From: a virus
Length of the DNA: 64,000 nt
Virus record (IMG/VR): IMGVR_UViG_3300011113_000747
Span: 1-64,000 of that record
Strand: one strand, 5' to 3'
Below the pieces are notes generated by a model. The model made no database searches, was not told where the DNA came from, and worked only from the letters and a program-made list of their open reading frames with translations. A program made the translations under genes and the position numbers. Below, one piece after another: positions 51,224-58,893 of this stretch. The first letter of the stretch is position 1; every line of letters begins with the position of its first letter.

Positions 51224-51312
51224 TCCCCCTTAGCTCAGTGGTAGAGCGCTTGGCTGTTAACCAGGAGGCCCTTATAAGGTATAGCGACGATCGTAACGTC
51301 GAGGGGGAGCCA
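51224..51312 (+). tRNA. tRNA-Asn(GTT) with long variable region
   Basis: Cloverleaf; 19-nt variable region. Confidence 0.8.
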
Positions 51313-51321
51313 ATTTCAAAA

Positions 51322-51407
51322 GCAGGTGTGGGTCAATTGGTTGACCAACAGACTTTTAATCTGTGCGAGTAATCGCTATGTGGGTTCGAGTCCCATCGCC
51401 TGCACCA
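51322..51407 (+). tRNA. tRNA-Lys(TTT) with long variable arm
   Basis: Cloverleaf; GCGA-GTAA-TCGC variable hairpin. Confidence 0.85.
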
Positions 51408-51416
51408 ATTTCAAAT

Positions 51417-51493
51417 ATCCGGCCATGTTCCAAGGCTAGGCGACGCGGACTCCAAATTTGCGTGGGTCAGTTCAATTCTGACGCCGGATGCCA
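51417..51493 (+). tRNA. tRNA-Trp(CCA)
   Basis: Cloverleaf, G73, CCA. Confidence 0.85.
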
Positions 51494-51501
51494 TTTCAAA
51501 T

Positions 51502-51577
51502 GCCCCATTAGTATAACGGACAGAACACTCGGCTACGAACCGAGAGAAGGTAGGTTCAATTCCTCCATGGGGTACCA
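51502..51577 (+). tRNA. tRNA-Arg(ACG)
   Basis: Canonical cloverleaf. Confidence 0.92.
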
Positions 51578-51580
51578 TTT

Positions 51581-51655
51581 CGCGCAATGGTGTAAGGTAA
51601 AGCACGCTGGCCACACTGGCGCCAGAGGAAGGGTGAAAAGCCTGATGCGCAACCA
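51581..51655 (+). ncRNA. tRNA-like RNA with 9-nt anticodon loop
   Basis: GCGCA/TGCGC acceptor, CTGGC-CACACTGGC-GCCAG arm, CCA end. Confidence 0.55.
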
Positions 51656-51663
51656 TTTCAAAT

Positions 51664-51742
51664 GCTCCAGAAGCTACAGTAGACGGGCAGCTGGCTCTTA
51701 ACCAGAAGATTCGTGTGGTTGCAACTACCACCTGGAGTACCA
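51664..51742 (+). tRNA. tRNA-Lys(CTT)
   Basis: Cloverleaf; T-loop TGCAACT. Confidence 0.85.
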
Positions 51743-51752
51743 ATTTCAAAAA

Positions 51753-51829
51753 GCCCCGGTAGCATAACTGGTAACTGCAGCAGTCTCAAACACTGAAGAG
51801 TGTCGGTTCGAATCCGACTCGGGGTACCA
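51753..51829 (+). tRNA. tRNA-Leu(CAA), short variable loop
   Basis: Cloverleaf, 77 nt. Confidence 0.85.
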
Positions 51830-51834
51830 ATTAA

Positions 51835-51921
51835 GGAAGCACCAGCTGAGATGGACGCTCTGCGGAGAAGTGTTACTTGTGCAAGAAAGCTAAACGAACG
51901 CTTTCCAGCTGACTTCCACCA
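51835..51921 (+). ncRNA. CCA-terminated structured RNA without a clear anticodon
   Basis: GGAAG/CTTCC plus CAGCTG/CAGCTG terminal stem; GAAAGC/GCTTTC hairpin; ACCA end. Confidence 0.55.
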
Positions 51922-51928
51922 ATTTCAT

Positions 51929-52027
51929 GGGAGTGTGAAGCCAAAGGCTAGGCTAGTGGTTCGATTCCACTTTAATTGCTGGTGCACTCGACGGAGCAAG
52001 AGGGTTCGAATCCCTTCACTTCCACCA
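51929..52027 (+). tRNA. tRNA-Ser(CGA), 99 nt
   Basis: Cloverleaf with very long variable arm; A73. Confidence 0.75.
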
Positions 52028-55791: not shown

Positions 55792-55996
55792 GACAATTCA
55801 TCTGGCTGTTGCAATGAGGTAAAGACCCAACGCAATGCCAAATAGTCCAAAAAGTAAGAGTAAAATATTCATAAGGGCTGCATTTCAAAACTATGGCAAA
55901 GCTTTTGCTATAGCGATGAAAATTGCAGCAATGCAAAAAAATCCAAGAAACATGTGGATTATCTCAAGGAAGTTCATATAGTTATTTATTCAAAAT

Positions 55997-56084
55997 GCTG
56001 GTGTGGCTGAGCGGCCTAAAGCACTAGTTTTGTAAACTAGCGGGAGTGATCCCATCGTCAGTTCGAATCTGACCACCAGCTCCA
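55997..56084 (+). tRNA. tRNA-Thr(TGT) with class II body and long variable arm
   Basis: CTAGT-TTTGTAA-ACTAG; GGGA-GTGA-TCCC variable hairpin; U73. Confidence 0.85.
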
Positions 56085-56090
56085 TCTTCC

Positions 56091-56270
56091 ATGAACAATC
56101 GCAGATCATTCTTCAAAAGACTCATTGGCTTAATCGCTGCACCAAAGGTTGCGAAAGCAACACACTCAAGCAACATAGTCAAAATGTGGACACCTGAAAC
56201 AGGTGTTACATATGGTGAGTATATTCATCCAGGCATTTGTATTAAACAAATTGACAAAACGGGGAGTTAG
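56091..56270 (+). CDS. Small protein with twin-arginine-like N-terminus, 59 aa (not in track)
   Basis: MNNRRSFFKRLIGLIAAPKVAKA. Confidence 0.55.
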   Translation: MNNRRSFFKRLIGLIAAPKVAKATHSSNIVKMWTPETGVTYGEYIHPGICIKQIDKTGS

Positions 56271-56345
56271 TATAGAAGCAGTACATTGGCTCGACACGCC
56301 AAAGAAGAAGGAGCGTTACCTTCACTCCCTACCATAAATATATTC

Positions 56346-56828
56346 ATGAAGTTTGATGATGTTGTAAACGAAGCACTTTCACGTCTTTCGCCTGTAAAAC
56401 TATATAGAGGAGCTGAACCAGATGAGGATCCTTCGAGTGAAGTAGAAAGACCTTGGGCCCAAGGTCGTGAATTAGATTTTCGTGCTGCATTTATGAAAGG
56501 AGATGTTGATGAAGTTATCAGCATGCTGCGTAAGCATGCTGGTGATTCTGGTGTAAGAGCAAAAGGTATAAAGTCATATTCTTTGAATAGAGATGTAGCA
56601 AAAGAGTTTATTTTCGACAAAGGTATAATTAAAGAATTAGATATACCCGCTAAAAACATAATTTCATCAAGACAAAGACTACAAACAATTTTATCTTTAC
56701 CTGATCAACAAAAACAGCAACTGCTCGATCAGGGTGTAGGATTCAACGTTAATAGATTGCTTTCCAAATATAAATTTGCTGCATCTGATCCAGATACAGA
56801 GCAAGAAATAATGATTTACAAAAAGTAA
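56346..56828 (+). CDS. ADP-ribosyltransferase-like protein (R-S-E motifs; start 56346)
   Basis: LYRG, SYSLNRDVAKEF, EQEIMI; CATAAATA late promoter. Confidence 0.6.
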   Translation: MKFDDVVNEALSRLSPVKLYRGAEPDEDPSSEVERPWAQGRELDFRAAFMKGDVDEVISMLRKHAGDSGVRAKGIKSYSLNRDVAKEFIFDKGIIKELDIPAKNIISSRQRLQTILSLPDQQKQQLLDQGVGFNVNRLLSKYKFAASDPDTEQEIMIYKK

Positions 56829-56906
56829 GCCAACTATCGCTCCACCCGACAGATAGCTTTGCATGACGGTGCAAATGACCCTGAAAATCGCAAGGAGCAA
56901 AATCAT

Positions 56907-56980
56907 GGTTTCTAAGCATAGACAGCGATGCACACGATTGGTATTCGTGATAGAGGAGCGCAAATCTCCTAGGAGCCTCC
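56907..56980 (+). tRNA. tRNA-Thr(GGT)
   Basis: Cloverleaf; T-loop CGCAAAT. Confidence 0.85.
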
Positions 56981-57054
56981 ATTTTTCAGTGGAACCTTAA
57001 AGGAACTACGTTATAATAAAAGTGAAGTTAAAACAAAAACTAAACTTAAAACAT

Positions 57055-58071
57055 ATGACAGAAACGTTAGAACAACTCAAAGAAACAGTCAAAAGCCATA
57101 CCATTGTGCCTTTTAGCGCACGTAATATTGCTTGCGAAAAAAATACACTCATTATCAATGACCGATATGTTGTTGATCAACCAAAGAAAGTTCTCGAGAC
57201 TCTAGGTATTCGAGATAATCTCATCAAGGAAATTTTTGATAAACCTGATGTTAATTGGGGCGCCATTCGTGATGCTCTTAATACTATCGATGATAAAAAG
57301 TCTTTTGGTGGTATTGTGGATAAAAACAACCGCATGCTTAATCTCACTAAGGCTGTAAAAGAAGAAACTCAGCTTGACTTTGATAAGCGTCTTGATGAGC
57401 TTTTTAATGCTATTGATGGTAGCCAAAGTAATGAACTTCAGAGTGCAATTTGGAGTCCAAGTGATTGTGCAGTTCATGTCAATTCTATTAATCGCTCAAG
57501 TGATATTGATTGCGGTGCTGGTGATATTTGGAAGTTTGGTACAACTACTATCATTGGAGACGCTATGCAACAGTTCAAGAATTATTTTCTTCGTCTAGTC
57601 TGCACAAACGGTATGACCACACGAGATAACATTGCATATCGAGCTGCTACAGCTTCTGTTAATATTGCTAAGCAGTTTGTGAAGTTTGCTAGCGATGGTG
57701 CTTTTGCAAATCAAATTACCCCTCGTGTTAATCGTCTTCGCAACAATCGAGCTTCTCTTTATGAGCTTACCTCTGTTGCTGATTGTCTTAACGCAGAACA
57801 GCGTGATACGTTTATGCCTGAATATGGCTATACCGTTGAACACTTTAAGAACGCTGGTCACCCAGTCGACGGCTTCTCAGCAGCTCGTAAGAAATTTGTT
57901 TATACAAATGAAAATCTTTATGATGTCTTTAATGTTGCAACCAATCTCGCAACACATCAGCGCGATGTGATCGGTGATGCTGCAGCAATGAGGCTCAATA
58001 AGGTTGCTGGTGAAATCTTCTCAAAAGGTCCGAATCTTGATATTCAGATTTTAGATCTTTGGAAGAACTAA
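57055..58071 (+). CDS. DUF932-family protein (likely start ATG 57055)
   Basis: FLRLVCTNGM motif; C-terminal N.AT..ATH. Confidence 0.7.
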   Translation: MTETLEQLKETVKSHTIVPFSARNIACEKNTLIINDRYVVDQPKKVLETLGIRDNLIKEIFDKPDVNWGAIRDALNTIDDKKSFGGIVDKNNRMLNLTKAVKEETQLDFDKRLDELFNAIDGSQSNELQSAIWSPSDCAVHVNSINRSSDIDCGAGDIWKFGTTTIIGDAMQQFKNYFLRLVCTNGMTTRDNIAYRAATASVNIAKQFVKFASDGAFANQITPRVNRLRNNRASLYELTSVADCLNAEQRDTFMPEYGYTVEHFKNAGHPVDGFSAARKKFVYTNENLYDVFNVATNLATHQRDVIGDAAAMRLNKVAGEIFSKGPNLDIQILDLWKN

Positions 58072-58200
58072 AAACTTCGGTGGGTAACTAGTACATAAAA
58101 AATATTAGTTACCCACCAAAAAATAGTAGATTTATAAAGGAAAGTAGCTAAAATAAATACATAAGAGCGACAAAAAGCTCGATGATCTTTGATAAATTCC

Positions 58201-58487
58201 GTGGTGGCAGAACAATGGGTCGCCAGCCCATAATGCACTAAGCAACGTCTGAAAAGACGCCAGGTAGGTTGAAAAAGTTATGCCGGATAAAGCTGAAATA
58301 ACCAAGATTGGTCAAATCTTGAGTGACGTAAGAAGACAACAAATCGTTATTATACGACTGATGGCTGTATTGTCTTGGAGGTAACCATTCCTCTCTATCA
58401 TTAACAATGAGAGTAATTAACTCATTGGATAGTGGCTGAATAATCCGACATAATGGAGACTTGTGAGTAGTCAGGAATCTCACCCAC
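58201..58487 (+). ncRNA. Candidate large multi-hairpin ncRNA
   Basis: Own GGAA-N6-TAAAAT promoter; at least 7 hairpins; GTGG/CCAC closure; no credible ORF. Confidence 0.5.
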
Positions 58488-58531
58488 ACTAATTTCTCTC
58501 GCAAGAGAATAGAAAGGAAACACACATACAC

Positions 58532-58747
58532 ATGAATAAAAACGCATATGAAATCAGGCTAGATGTTCTTGGTATGGCTCATGGTACTATCATGAATCAA
58601 TACCACGAAAAGATTGGTCAGCTTCGCGATAATGCAAATCGTACAAATCATCAGTTTGATGTTGAGCTTATTGATAAGCTTATGCCGAAAACGGCAGACA
58701 TCATTGCTTATGCAAACGAATTGTATTCCTTCGTAGAAGGCAAATAG
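58532..58747 (+). CDS. Conserved small phage protein
   Basis: KNAYEIRLDVL...P....I..A.ELY.FV pattern; AGGAAA RBS. Confidence 0.75.
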   Translation: MNKNAYEIRLDVLGMAHGTIMNQYHEKIGQLRDNANRTNHQFDVELIDKLMPKTADIIAYANELYSFVEGK

Positions 58748-58797
58748 AGTCAAAGTGGTGCTGGATAACCACATTAAACACCAGTAAATATATACAT

Positions 58798-58893
58798 GCT
58801 CCAGTAGCTCAATTGGTAGAGCGGAAGGCTTATACCCTTCGTATGCACCAGATTAGTGCGCGGTTGTCGGTTCGAGCCCGGCCTGGAGTACCA
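58798..58893 (+). tRNA. tRNA-Ile(TAT) with long variable arm
   Basis: GAAGG-CTTATAC-CCTTC; GCAC/GTGC variable hairpin; 96 nt. Confidence 0.85.

Follow-up and report, generated by a model that had tools for sequence, protein, structure and literature searches.

In bacteria, a long variable arm is the textbook mark of leucine, serine, tyrosine and selenocysteine (Sec) transfer RNAs (tRNAs). The first 64 kb (hereafter the window) of the 184,542-bp virus record IMGVR_UViG_3300011113_000747 raise the question of what it means for this mark to be carried by other tRNAs. In a dense tRNA array of the window, long variable regions are found in tRNA-Asn(GUU) (51224-51312), tRNA-Lys(UUU) (51322-51407), tRNA-Thr(UGU) (55997-56084) and tRNA-Ile(UAU) (58798-58893), hereafter Asn-L, Lys-L, Thr-L and Ile-L, and several tRNA-Leu genes lack them. 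On balance, the swap seems to concern body architecture and not amino-acid identity, these genes encoding functional phage tRNAs whose anticodons retain their standard meaning. As far as sequence evidence goes, the probable use of the odd shapes lies in charging, or in evading host defences that cut tRNAs, and not in recoding. A more specific joint reading, given a probability of roughly one in three, is that Ile-L belongs to a family of two-headed tRNA-Ile(UAU) of phages, mobile arrays and Actinomyces whose second loop would act as a GAU handle, and that the arms of Lys-L, Thr-L and Asn-L would be armour against AriB-like anticodon-stem nucleases.

The four long variable regions had been pointed out in an earlier note on this DNA, and both ARAGORN and the Rfam tRNA model RF00005 called all four genes on the plus strand, with Rfam scores above the gathering score (Asn-L 35.3, Lys-L 60.0, Thr-L 58.6 and Ile-L 55.9 bits). 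When aligned to the Rfam model, they showed an insertion of 12-21 nt within the variable region, which forms a paired extra arm, a hairpin of 3-5 bp, in each of them, and the ARAGORN structures had a 7/5 arrangement of acceptor and T stems throughout. The four long tRNAs are nevertheless not one kind. Asn-L, Lys-L and Ile-L possessed a 4-bp class-I D stem with a 7-8-nt loop, and Thr-L alone had the class-II D arm of Leu, Ser and Tyr tRNAs that the same note had described (3-bp stem, 11-nt loop). The linker and loop of a class-II arm were found in Lys-L and Thr-L (3-nt linker, tetraloops) and not in Ile-L (5-nt linker, 7-nt loop). The acceptor ends fit the anticodons: Asn-L had U1-A72 and G73 like its canonical twin, Lys-L and Ile-L had A73, and the G1-C72, C2-G71 and U73 of Thr-L matched class-I Thr tRNAs of related phages. 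We take the acceptor and anticodon features of Asn-L, Thr-L and Lys-L to be identity elements of AsnRS, ThrRS and LysRS.

These genes are real, conserved and under RNA-structure selection. Their CCA ends are encoded and their cloverleaves intact, homologues of the array tRNAs were present in related and unrelated contigs with compensatory changes, and covariation was demonstrated for the arms of the Ile and Thr families. Minimum-free-energy folding recovered the cloverleaf of Lys-L and, except for the D arm, of Thr-L; as it missed those of Asn-L and Ile-L, thermodynamics alone is no test here.

Ile-L (96 nt) possessed a class-I body with G1-U72 and discriminator A73, and a second stem-loop between the anticodon and T arms. 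Its anticodon loop, CUUAUAC, presents UAU in a 7-nt loop with U33 and A37. The extra arm (58844-58860, plus strand) consists of a stem UGCAC/GUGCG and a 7-nt loop, CAGAUUA (58849-58855), and is followed by a 5-nt linker, CGGUU. Among 121 related loci fetched via neighbouring proteins (anchors 54202-54660 and 59363-59884), calls of odd size were frequent for Ile(tat) (8/9, all 93-96 nt), Thr(tgt) (9/16), Leu(taa) (7/9) and Leu(tag) (6/10); with the open reading frame (ORF) at 57022-58071 as anchor, no relatives were found. A pattern in which the anticodon loop, the T loop and the 3' end were fixed and the arm left free matched at least 120 loci in viral contigs, including at least 113 with an Ile(tat) call and at least 87 distinct sequences, as well as 51 loci in bacterial genomes, 30 of them with Ile(tat). 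The bacterial matches fell into two groups, namely tRNA arrays in metagenome-assembled genomes and an Acidithiobacillus chromosome on the one hand, and lone chromosomal genes in eight Actinomyces records on the other. Cultured carriers were the Synechococcus phages SynMITS9220M01 (annotated tRNA-Ile, 95 nt) and DSL-LC02 and the Aeromonas phage 1233; two of these three copies have no annotation.

In an alignment of 116 distinct Ile(UAU) sequences, the arm loop followed the consensus Y-A-G-A-U-U-A, with G and A of the GAU triplet each in 115 and U in 110 sequences. The arm helix comprised 4-5 bp, its four inner pairs being formed in 108-116 of the 116 sequences with 12-49 double changes. Paired cells of the arm amounted to 91.2%, compared to 61.7% in shuffled alignments, and the covariation score was 0.762 compared to 0.203 (reached by 0/500 shuffles), with 0.12-0.18 in slid controls. 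Among the matches listed, the 3' linker after the arm was 5 nt long in 70/87 viral sequences, as in 7/7 sequences from the anchored loci, which is as long as the variable loop of a class-I tRNA. In most canonical Ser and Leu tRNAs from these loci, the linker measured 1 nt and the arm loop 4 nt, and GAT occurred in the arm loop of 1/56 Ser, 0/17 Leu and 0/8 Tyr tRNAs. The anticodon loop of class-I tRNA-Ile(GAU) from these loci was YUGAUAA in 14/16 cases, and the arm loop of bacterial Ile(UAU), CUGAUAA, is identical to it.

This bacterial version was found as a chromosomal tRNA-Ile(UAU) of 92-95 nt, with an arm loop of exactly CUGAUAA, in at least 15 Actinomyces species (records L241, L257, L279 and L571-L676), and its arm showed a compensatory change from GUGC/GCAC to GUGU/ACAC. 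A scan with the CUGAUAA pattern added at least 21 further Ile(tat) genes, nearly all from Actinomyces, among the 120 matches listed, the other 99 being chance matches. When the Actinomyces tRNA was compared by BLAST with 301 genomes of its class, only half-tRNA matches were obtained outside its own genome. The lysidine-forming enzyme family TilS (TIGR02432) was found in 0/3 Actinomyces genomes, compared to 14/14 control genomes, so that the long-arm tRNA-Ile(UAU) is presumably the cell's AUA reader there.

As E. coli-type IleRS charges UAU tRNAs poorly (PMC3575796, partial text), we infer that the arm presents a GAU determinant to IleRS, and propose, from these sequence patterns, that its GAU loop is an IleRS recognition handle. 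The second stem-loop and its linker would have the layout of an anticodon arm followed by a class-I variable loop; the arm would offer IleRS the GAU determinant, and the true UAU loop would decode AUA without TilS. A33 and U37 of the phage arm loops would stop the arm itself from decoding. Such a two-headed tRNA would be a tRNA-side route to AUA decoding that works without TilS and with an unaltered IleRS. Mycoplasma mobile likewise has a tRNA-Ile(UAU) that reads AUA without lysidine, in a setting where ordinary IleRS rejects U34, but there the synthetase is altered (Arg865), whereas the phage family would alter the tRNA by adding a GAU-loop arm; in the partial text of the source, the word "variable" occurs 0 times and no extra arm is mentioned (PMC3575796). 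The earlier note had offered nuclease-resistant backups or recoding as the two options for the swapped tRNAs, which cover neither the Ile(UAU) arm nor the short Leu tRNAs described below, and other explanations are needed for both.

The remaining three long tRNAs differ in how widely they recur. Thr-L (88 nt) carried the arm GGGA-GUGA-UCCC and had a 93% identical homologue at L081:19445-19532. A scan of viral sequences for long Thr(UGU) genes gave at least 119 loci, at least 114 with a Thr(tgt) call and at least 96 distinct sequences of 81 nt or more; in 75 of the latter, as listed, the arm had 3-6 bp, with 45 different stem pairings. Judged by these matches, long Thr(UGU) is a large phage family that joins a class-II body to a Thr-type acceptor end, G71 C72 Y73 having been preset by the scan pattern. 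A reading of Thr-L as Tyr(GUA) shifted by one base was ruled out, since its 5-bp anticodon stem closes a regular 7-nt loop, UUUGUAA, which makes the anticodon UGU. Lys-L (86 nt) had a 4-bp D stem, A73 and the arm GCGA-GUAA-UCGC followed by 3 nt; its closest bodies were those of Leu(taa), Tyr and Lys(ttt) tRNAs. Asn-L (89 nt; Rfam 35.3-38.9 bits) combined U1-A72, G73, the T loop AUCGUAA and a class-I D arm with a 19-nt variable region holding a small hairpin, and a single homologue (94%) was found at L109:12802-12890. The arm loop of Asn-L, CUUAUAA, equals an Ile(UAU) anticodon loop; this match is probably due to chance, and a meaning for it was set aside, as only two 94%-identical copies exist and the other long Asn tRNAs (L105, L278 and L280) have arm tetraloops.

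Asn(GUU) and Thr(UGU) had each been credited with a normal copy. For Asn this was borne out by a canonical 76-nt gene (53594-53669, plus strand) called by ARAGORN and Rfam (60.9 bits). The Thr(UGU)-like twin, of class-I size (52214-52288, plus strand), was recognized by direct reading and folding and is non-canonical, with U-U at 31-39 and the T loop CGCAAGU, and was called neither by ARAGORN, even relaxed, nor by Rfam.

In E. coli, the targets of AriB, the nuclease of the PARIS defence system, coincide exactly with the arm-bearing Lys(UUU), Thr(UGU) and Asn(GUU); AriB recognizes U36-A-A-U-C|A41 as well as the D loop and cuts at 40|41, and phage T5 variants of the same three tRNAs are necessary and sufficient for rescue (bioRxiv 10.1101/2025.02.04.636281, partial text). 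The chance that four arm-bearers include these three is about 1 in 700 (24/17,550 subsets), a post hoc figure that relies on a rough count of about 27 class-I anticodons. In view of this exact coincidence, the three are plausibly nuclease-escape versions. Lys-L, Thr-L and Asn-L would keep their acceptor and anticodon identity for LysRS, ThrRS and AsnRS, and the added arm, in Thr-L together with the changed D arm, would sit by the AriB cut site and the D loop that AriB reads, which makes them most likely nuclease-escape copies. At positions 36-41, Thr-L reads UAAAC|U, with A in place of U39 as in the T5 mutant Mut1, and Asn-L reads UAACC|A, also changed at position 39. The variant tRNAs of T5 are presumably of ordinary size. 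The two phages share the three isoacceptors and Pnk/Rnl-type repair genes, and the A at position 39 of Thr-L resembles the resistant T5 mutation, but T5 relies on point substitutions around positions 39-41 and in the D loop, whereas a whole extra arm is the predicted means of escape here (bioRxiv 10.1101/2025.02.04.636281, partial text). The suggestion of nuclease-resistant backups is thus plausible for Lys, Thr and Asn, and does not extend to Ile(UAU), which lies outside the AriB set.

The rest of the genome encodes an RNA repair set, comprising a polynucleotide kinase-phosphatase (PNKP) and Rnl1-like and Rnl2-like ligases (149475-150362, 164886-166061 and 173958-174959), and a Tad3 Thoeris inhibitor (about 151481-151930). 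A protein with a cyclic-phosphate-processing receiver domain (cREC_REC; 59363-59884) comes after the transfer-messenger RNA (tmRNA) gene of the window. Taken together, PNKP, the two ligases, the cREC_REC protein and Tad3 indicate a phage clearly engaged with RNA-hitting host defences. No aminoacyl-tRNA synthetase was found among the 148 ORFs scanned.

With three of four long tRNAs matching the PARIS targets, a tRNA repair kit in the phage, and twins of normal size for Asn and Thr, it could be argued that all arms, that of Ile included, are steric armour or decoys against host tRNA nucleases without any role in aminoacylation. This is unlikely in view of the Ile family: a steric arm needs neither a near-invariant G-A-U loop (115, 115 and 110 of 116) nor a fixed 5-nt linker, and TilS-less Actinomyces carries the same design on its chromosome, presumably to read the AUA codons of the cell itself rather than to counter a defence.

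Modularity of the tRNA bodies suggests another explanation, in which the arms are neutral by-products of recombination or duplication in packed tRNA genes, tolerated by synthetases that read the anticodon and the acceptor end. The acceptor stem GCUCCAG/CUGGAGU is common to Ile-L, the Lys(cuu) gene at 51664 and the Leu(taa) gene at 171887; class-II-bodied Asn, Gln, Cys and Lys tRNAs, with acceptor ends according to their anticodons, occur in other arrays; and Lys-L is a singleton. Neutral arms are nonetheless improbable, since those of Ile and Thr have been long retained across hundreds of contigs with many compensatory changes, and the sequence of the Ile loop is conserved.

As the earlier note had also considered deliberately mischarged, recoding tRNAs, the amino acids at conserved positions of phage proteins were inspected. 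Codons were compared with the residue of the homologues at columns at least 80% conserved in NrdA (118 homologues, 60-79% identical, two above 90% dropped) and terminase (110 homologues, 53-70% identical, 10 close or odd-length ones dropped); a 707-aa baseplate protein was unusable, with only four homologues. Pooling both proteins, ACA stood for Thr in 12/15 columns (NrdA 7/9, terminase 5/6), AAA for Lys in 17/18 (10/11 and 7/7), AAT/AAC for Asn in 33/37 (21/22 and 12/15) and ATA for Ile in 4/4 (no ATA codon in NrdA; terminase 4/4, with 81-100% Ile). Leu codons stood for Leu in 66/73 columns, including TTA (NrdA 2/4, terminase 7/7), TTG (7/7 and 3/3), CTT (20/22 and 7/7), CTC (8/9 in NrdA, none conserved in terminase) and CTA (1/1 and 4/4). 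Ser appeared in none of the exceptions, and Leu in none of the non-Leu exceptions. The phage proteins follow the standard code, and recoding is therefore unsupported, low-level misincorporation being invisible to such a test. Throughout the genome, ATA use was bimodal, at 0-3% of Ile codons in NrdA, capsid, sheath, UvsX and RNA ligase genes and 30-61% in baseplate and tail-fibre genes, which fits a codon dependent on a phage-supplied reader; the latter share implies that an AUA reader is needed.

These results bear on the idea that SerRS or LeuRS accepts the tRNAs because of their long arms and that AUA, ACA, AAA or AAY would thereby be deliberately and partly mistranslated, as with allo-tRNAs and nematode nev-tRNAs. 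A long arm with U73 or G73 can suffice for SerRS (PMC5389517, partial text), Thr-L has a Ser/Tyr-like D arm and U73, and nev-tRNA-Ile(UAU) decodes as Leu (PMC3333845, partial text). Such mistranslation is nonetheless very improbable here, given the standard amino acids at conserved columns, acceptor ends of Asn, Thr and Lys/Ile type rather than of the phage Ser type (GGAG..., G73), class-I D arms in three of the four and 7/5 rather than 8/4 structures; moreover, an Actinomyces cell with a mischarged sole AUA reader would presumably not survive.

The resemblance to these two groups is partial. Allo-tRNAs and the (8/4) tRNA-Ser/His of bacteria and phages also combine long arms with non-Ser/Leu anticodons, UAU being among the commonest, and come from metagenomes, phage tRNA clusters and polycistrons of irregular tRNAs, but allo-tRNAs are Sec-like and charged with Ser, whereas the present tRNAs are 7/5, with three ordinary D arms and acceptor ends fitting their own synthetases (PMC5389517, partial text). 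With 7/5 in all four, and not 8/4 or 9/3, none is an allo-tRNA. An 8/4 tRNA-Ser has been reported from phage tRNA clusters (PMC5389517, partial text), and the array has a tRNA of this form, a Ser(UGA) gene at 50692-50781 whose acceptor and T stems comprise 8 and 4 bp. The nev-tRNAs share the class-II shape and the UAU (Ile) anticodon; they are eukaryotic, with a Leu-derived body and Leu charging, as opposed to the Ile-type body and the AUA codons aligned with Ile found here, by which membership was ruled out (PMC3333845, partial text). The premise of the earlier note that, in bacteria, only Leu, Ser, Tyr and Sec tRNAs have long arms does not hold, as exceptions have been published, and bacterial Leu tRNAs are likewise not always long-armed (PMC5389517 and PMC6614811, partial texts). 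No literature on long-arm phage Ile or Thr tRNAs, or on the arm of the Actinomyces tRNA-Ile(UAU), was found in a search with bioRxiv supplements and subscription journals outside its scope; the set of body variants is largely undescribed.

Short loops had been claimed for all four Leu tRNAs of the window, which holds for three of them, all on the plus strand. Leu(CAA) (51753-51829; 77 nt, Rfam 57.0 bits), Leu(UAG) (52129-52205; 77 nt, 60.6 bits) and Leu(AAG) (53298-53373; 76 nt, 37.3 bits) were called by ARAGORN, scored above the Rfam gathering score and had a 5-nt variable loop, as in type I tRNAs. All three kept the 3-bp Leu-like D stem and A73, with an 11-nt D loop in the first two, which share their body type; G1-U72 was present in Leu(CAA) and Leu(UAG), and A1-U72 in Leu(AAG), which also had a G2-G71 mismatch and the T loop UGCAAAU. 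Their closest relatives were Leu tRNAs of 76-78 nt in many other phage or array loci: 77-nt Leu(taa/caa) bodies of other contigs for Leu(CAA), homologues in L001, L074, L081 and L109 for Leu(UAG), and for Leu(AAG) a 98.6% identical homologue with an intact acceptor stem (L081:16860-16935). The fourth, a tRNA-like unit with a Leu-type UAA loop (52037-52120, plus strand), was read directly and folded; it is non-canonical, without a variable hairpin and with a 25-nt D region, and went uncalled by the Rfam tRNA model and by ARAGORN even at relaxed settings. Outside the window, the genome carries a 93-nt Leu(taa) with a long arm (171887-171979), so that the Leu tRNAs of this phage are not all short.

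The short Leu tRNAs would thus have lost the arm and kept the Leu-type D arm and A73 (and G1-U72 in CAA and UAG), and could, by analogy, be substrates of a host LeuRS with tolerance for type I tRNA-Leu. In Streptomyces coelicolor, an armless type I tRNA-Leu(CAA) is leucylated by the organism's own LeuRS, but the present genes are phage-encoded, cover the anticodons CAA, UAG and AAG and recur in many phage and mobile-element arrays (PMC6614811, partial text).

Contigs from freshwater RNA libraries spanned Asn-L and Lys-L (X2 record 10, X3 record 18 and X4 record 25) and Thr-L (X3 record 22 and X4 record 29) with their arms intact, and 0/15 joints shown, of 50, removed an arm. As assembled contigs, these data are silent on mature ends, strand and level, and uncovered parts carry no meaning. 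That the odd-armed genes are decaying or non-translational tRNA-like elements (pseudogenes, processing signals or precursors losing their arms) is hardly credible, as the many aberrant units of the array, the acceptor mismatch of Leu(AAG) and the 35 bits of Asn-L are outweighed by conservation and covariation, encoded CCA ends on intact cloverleaves, arms retained in RNA-library contigs and the need for an AUA reader in baseplate and fibre genes.

Several points weigh against the joint reading of a GAU handle on Ile-L and nuclease armour on the other three, and against code-keeping tRNAs in general. Regarding the handle, 5/116 Ile(UAU) sequences have GAC instead of GAU, the base before GAU in most phage arm loops is A and not U, and the proposal, which comes from sequence, presupposes that IleRS would reach a loop on a side arm. 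Regarding the armour, Lys-L reads UAAUC|U and thus keeps the AriB motif, with only U41 differing from E. coli and U16 and U17 retained, and has no homologue in the 121 related loci; the host of this phage may lack PARIS; and long-armed Trp, Met, Cys, Gln, His and Arg tRNAs occur in other phages too, so that the match with the PARIS set may be partly chance. E. coli LeuRS failed to charge the Streptomyces type I tRNA-Leu, which makes the function of the short Leu tRNAs host-dependent (PMC6614811, partial text). The evidence on ATA amounts to four conserved columns; in a gp6-like protein (109/150 representatives used, 41 of odd length dropped), 0/10 ATA codons fell in a column at least 60% conserved, so that this protein is uninformative for ATA. 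In addition, the homologues of the codon test are mostly from related phages, which may carry the same tRNAs, and the contig-based RNA evidence is weak, with DNA carry-over possible.

Judged by its gene content, the virus is a T4-like myovirus: PHROG and Pfam matches included a gp23-type major head protein, portal, sheath, baseplate, gp32, a gp43-type polymerase and a T4-type terminase. The capsid protein is about 34% identical to those of the closest cultured phages, which are cyanomyoviruses, and a megablast search of the array against 50,697 phage records gave only generic tRNA-Pro matches and no close relative. DUF1501, PSCyt2 (DUF1549) and PSD1 (DUF1553) proteins are encoded at 79983-81242 and 86864-89895 of the genome; these families are presumably typical of Planctomycetota and Verrucomicrobiota and may hint at the phage host. 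The genome also holds a complete preQ pathway (FolE, QueD, a radical-SAM QueE-like protein, QueC and QueF) at 25007-25921 and 46347-49352 of the window and 76791-77516 of the genome, which could supply queuosine for GUN tRNAs (Asn, for example) or be used to modify DNA.

In the window, ARAGORN with default settings called 21 tRNAs, and Rfam gave 19 tRNAs and one tmRNA above the gathering score. The G+C content was about 33% in ORFs and 38-49% in the tRNA-dense stretch (50.2-59.4 kb). The tmRNA gene (58900-59343, plus strand; RF00023, 105 bits) starts 6 nt past Ile-L. About half of the array units at 50267-56334, among them Phe gaa (50267-50341), Pro tgg (51137-51213), Lys ctt (51664-51742), Met cat (52840-52914), Glu ttc (53045-53118) and Val gac (56261-56334), were tRNA-like genes with non-canonical T loops (AGCGUUA, AGCAUAA or UGCAAxU, with A54/U58 swapped and/or G55), called only by relaxed ARAGORN and often adjoining a canonical twin with the same anticodon. 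Two uncalled units at about 50419-50510 and 51036-51128 had rearranged D regions, with anticodon arms resembling those of Tyr(GUA) and Ser(GCU). Between 50.7 and 54 kb, almost all tRNAs ended with an encoded CCA followed by the spacer ATTTCAAA, and G1-U72 with A73 was common to many unrelated isoacceptors (Leu, Ile, Lys, Arg and Val). A non-coding region at 58182-58488, upstream of a small ORF, reached contig depths of 6049, 2388, 638 and 437 in four RNA runs, compared to about 0-10 for the preceding ORF, and gave only a weak Rfam match to the manA motif (18.7 bits, E 0.26); this region may give rise to an abundant, structured RNA of the phage.

Read as code-keeping tRNAs, these genes would mean that phage and mobile-element tRNA arrays break the long-arm rule systematically and leave the code intact. 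Such body swaps would show how little of the tRNA body most synthetases read, and tRNA engineering could draw on the odd-armed tRNAs as natural scaffolds; many of their genes are missed or mislabelled by standard annotation. If the arms of Lys, Thr and Asn block AriB-type nucleases, they would represent a structural mode of escape beside the point-mutation mode of T5. If the GAU arm is an identity handle, the Ile(UAU) family would be the first case of an identity element moved to an auxiliary arm and would add a third, hitherto unseen answer to the AUA/AUG problem to those given by lysidine or agmatidine and by the altered IleRS.

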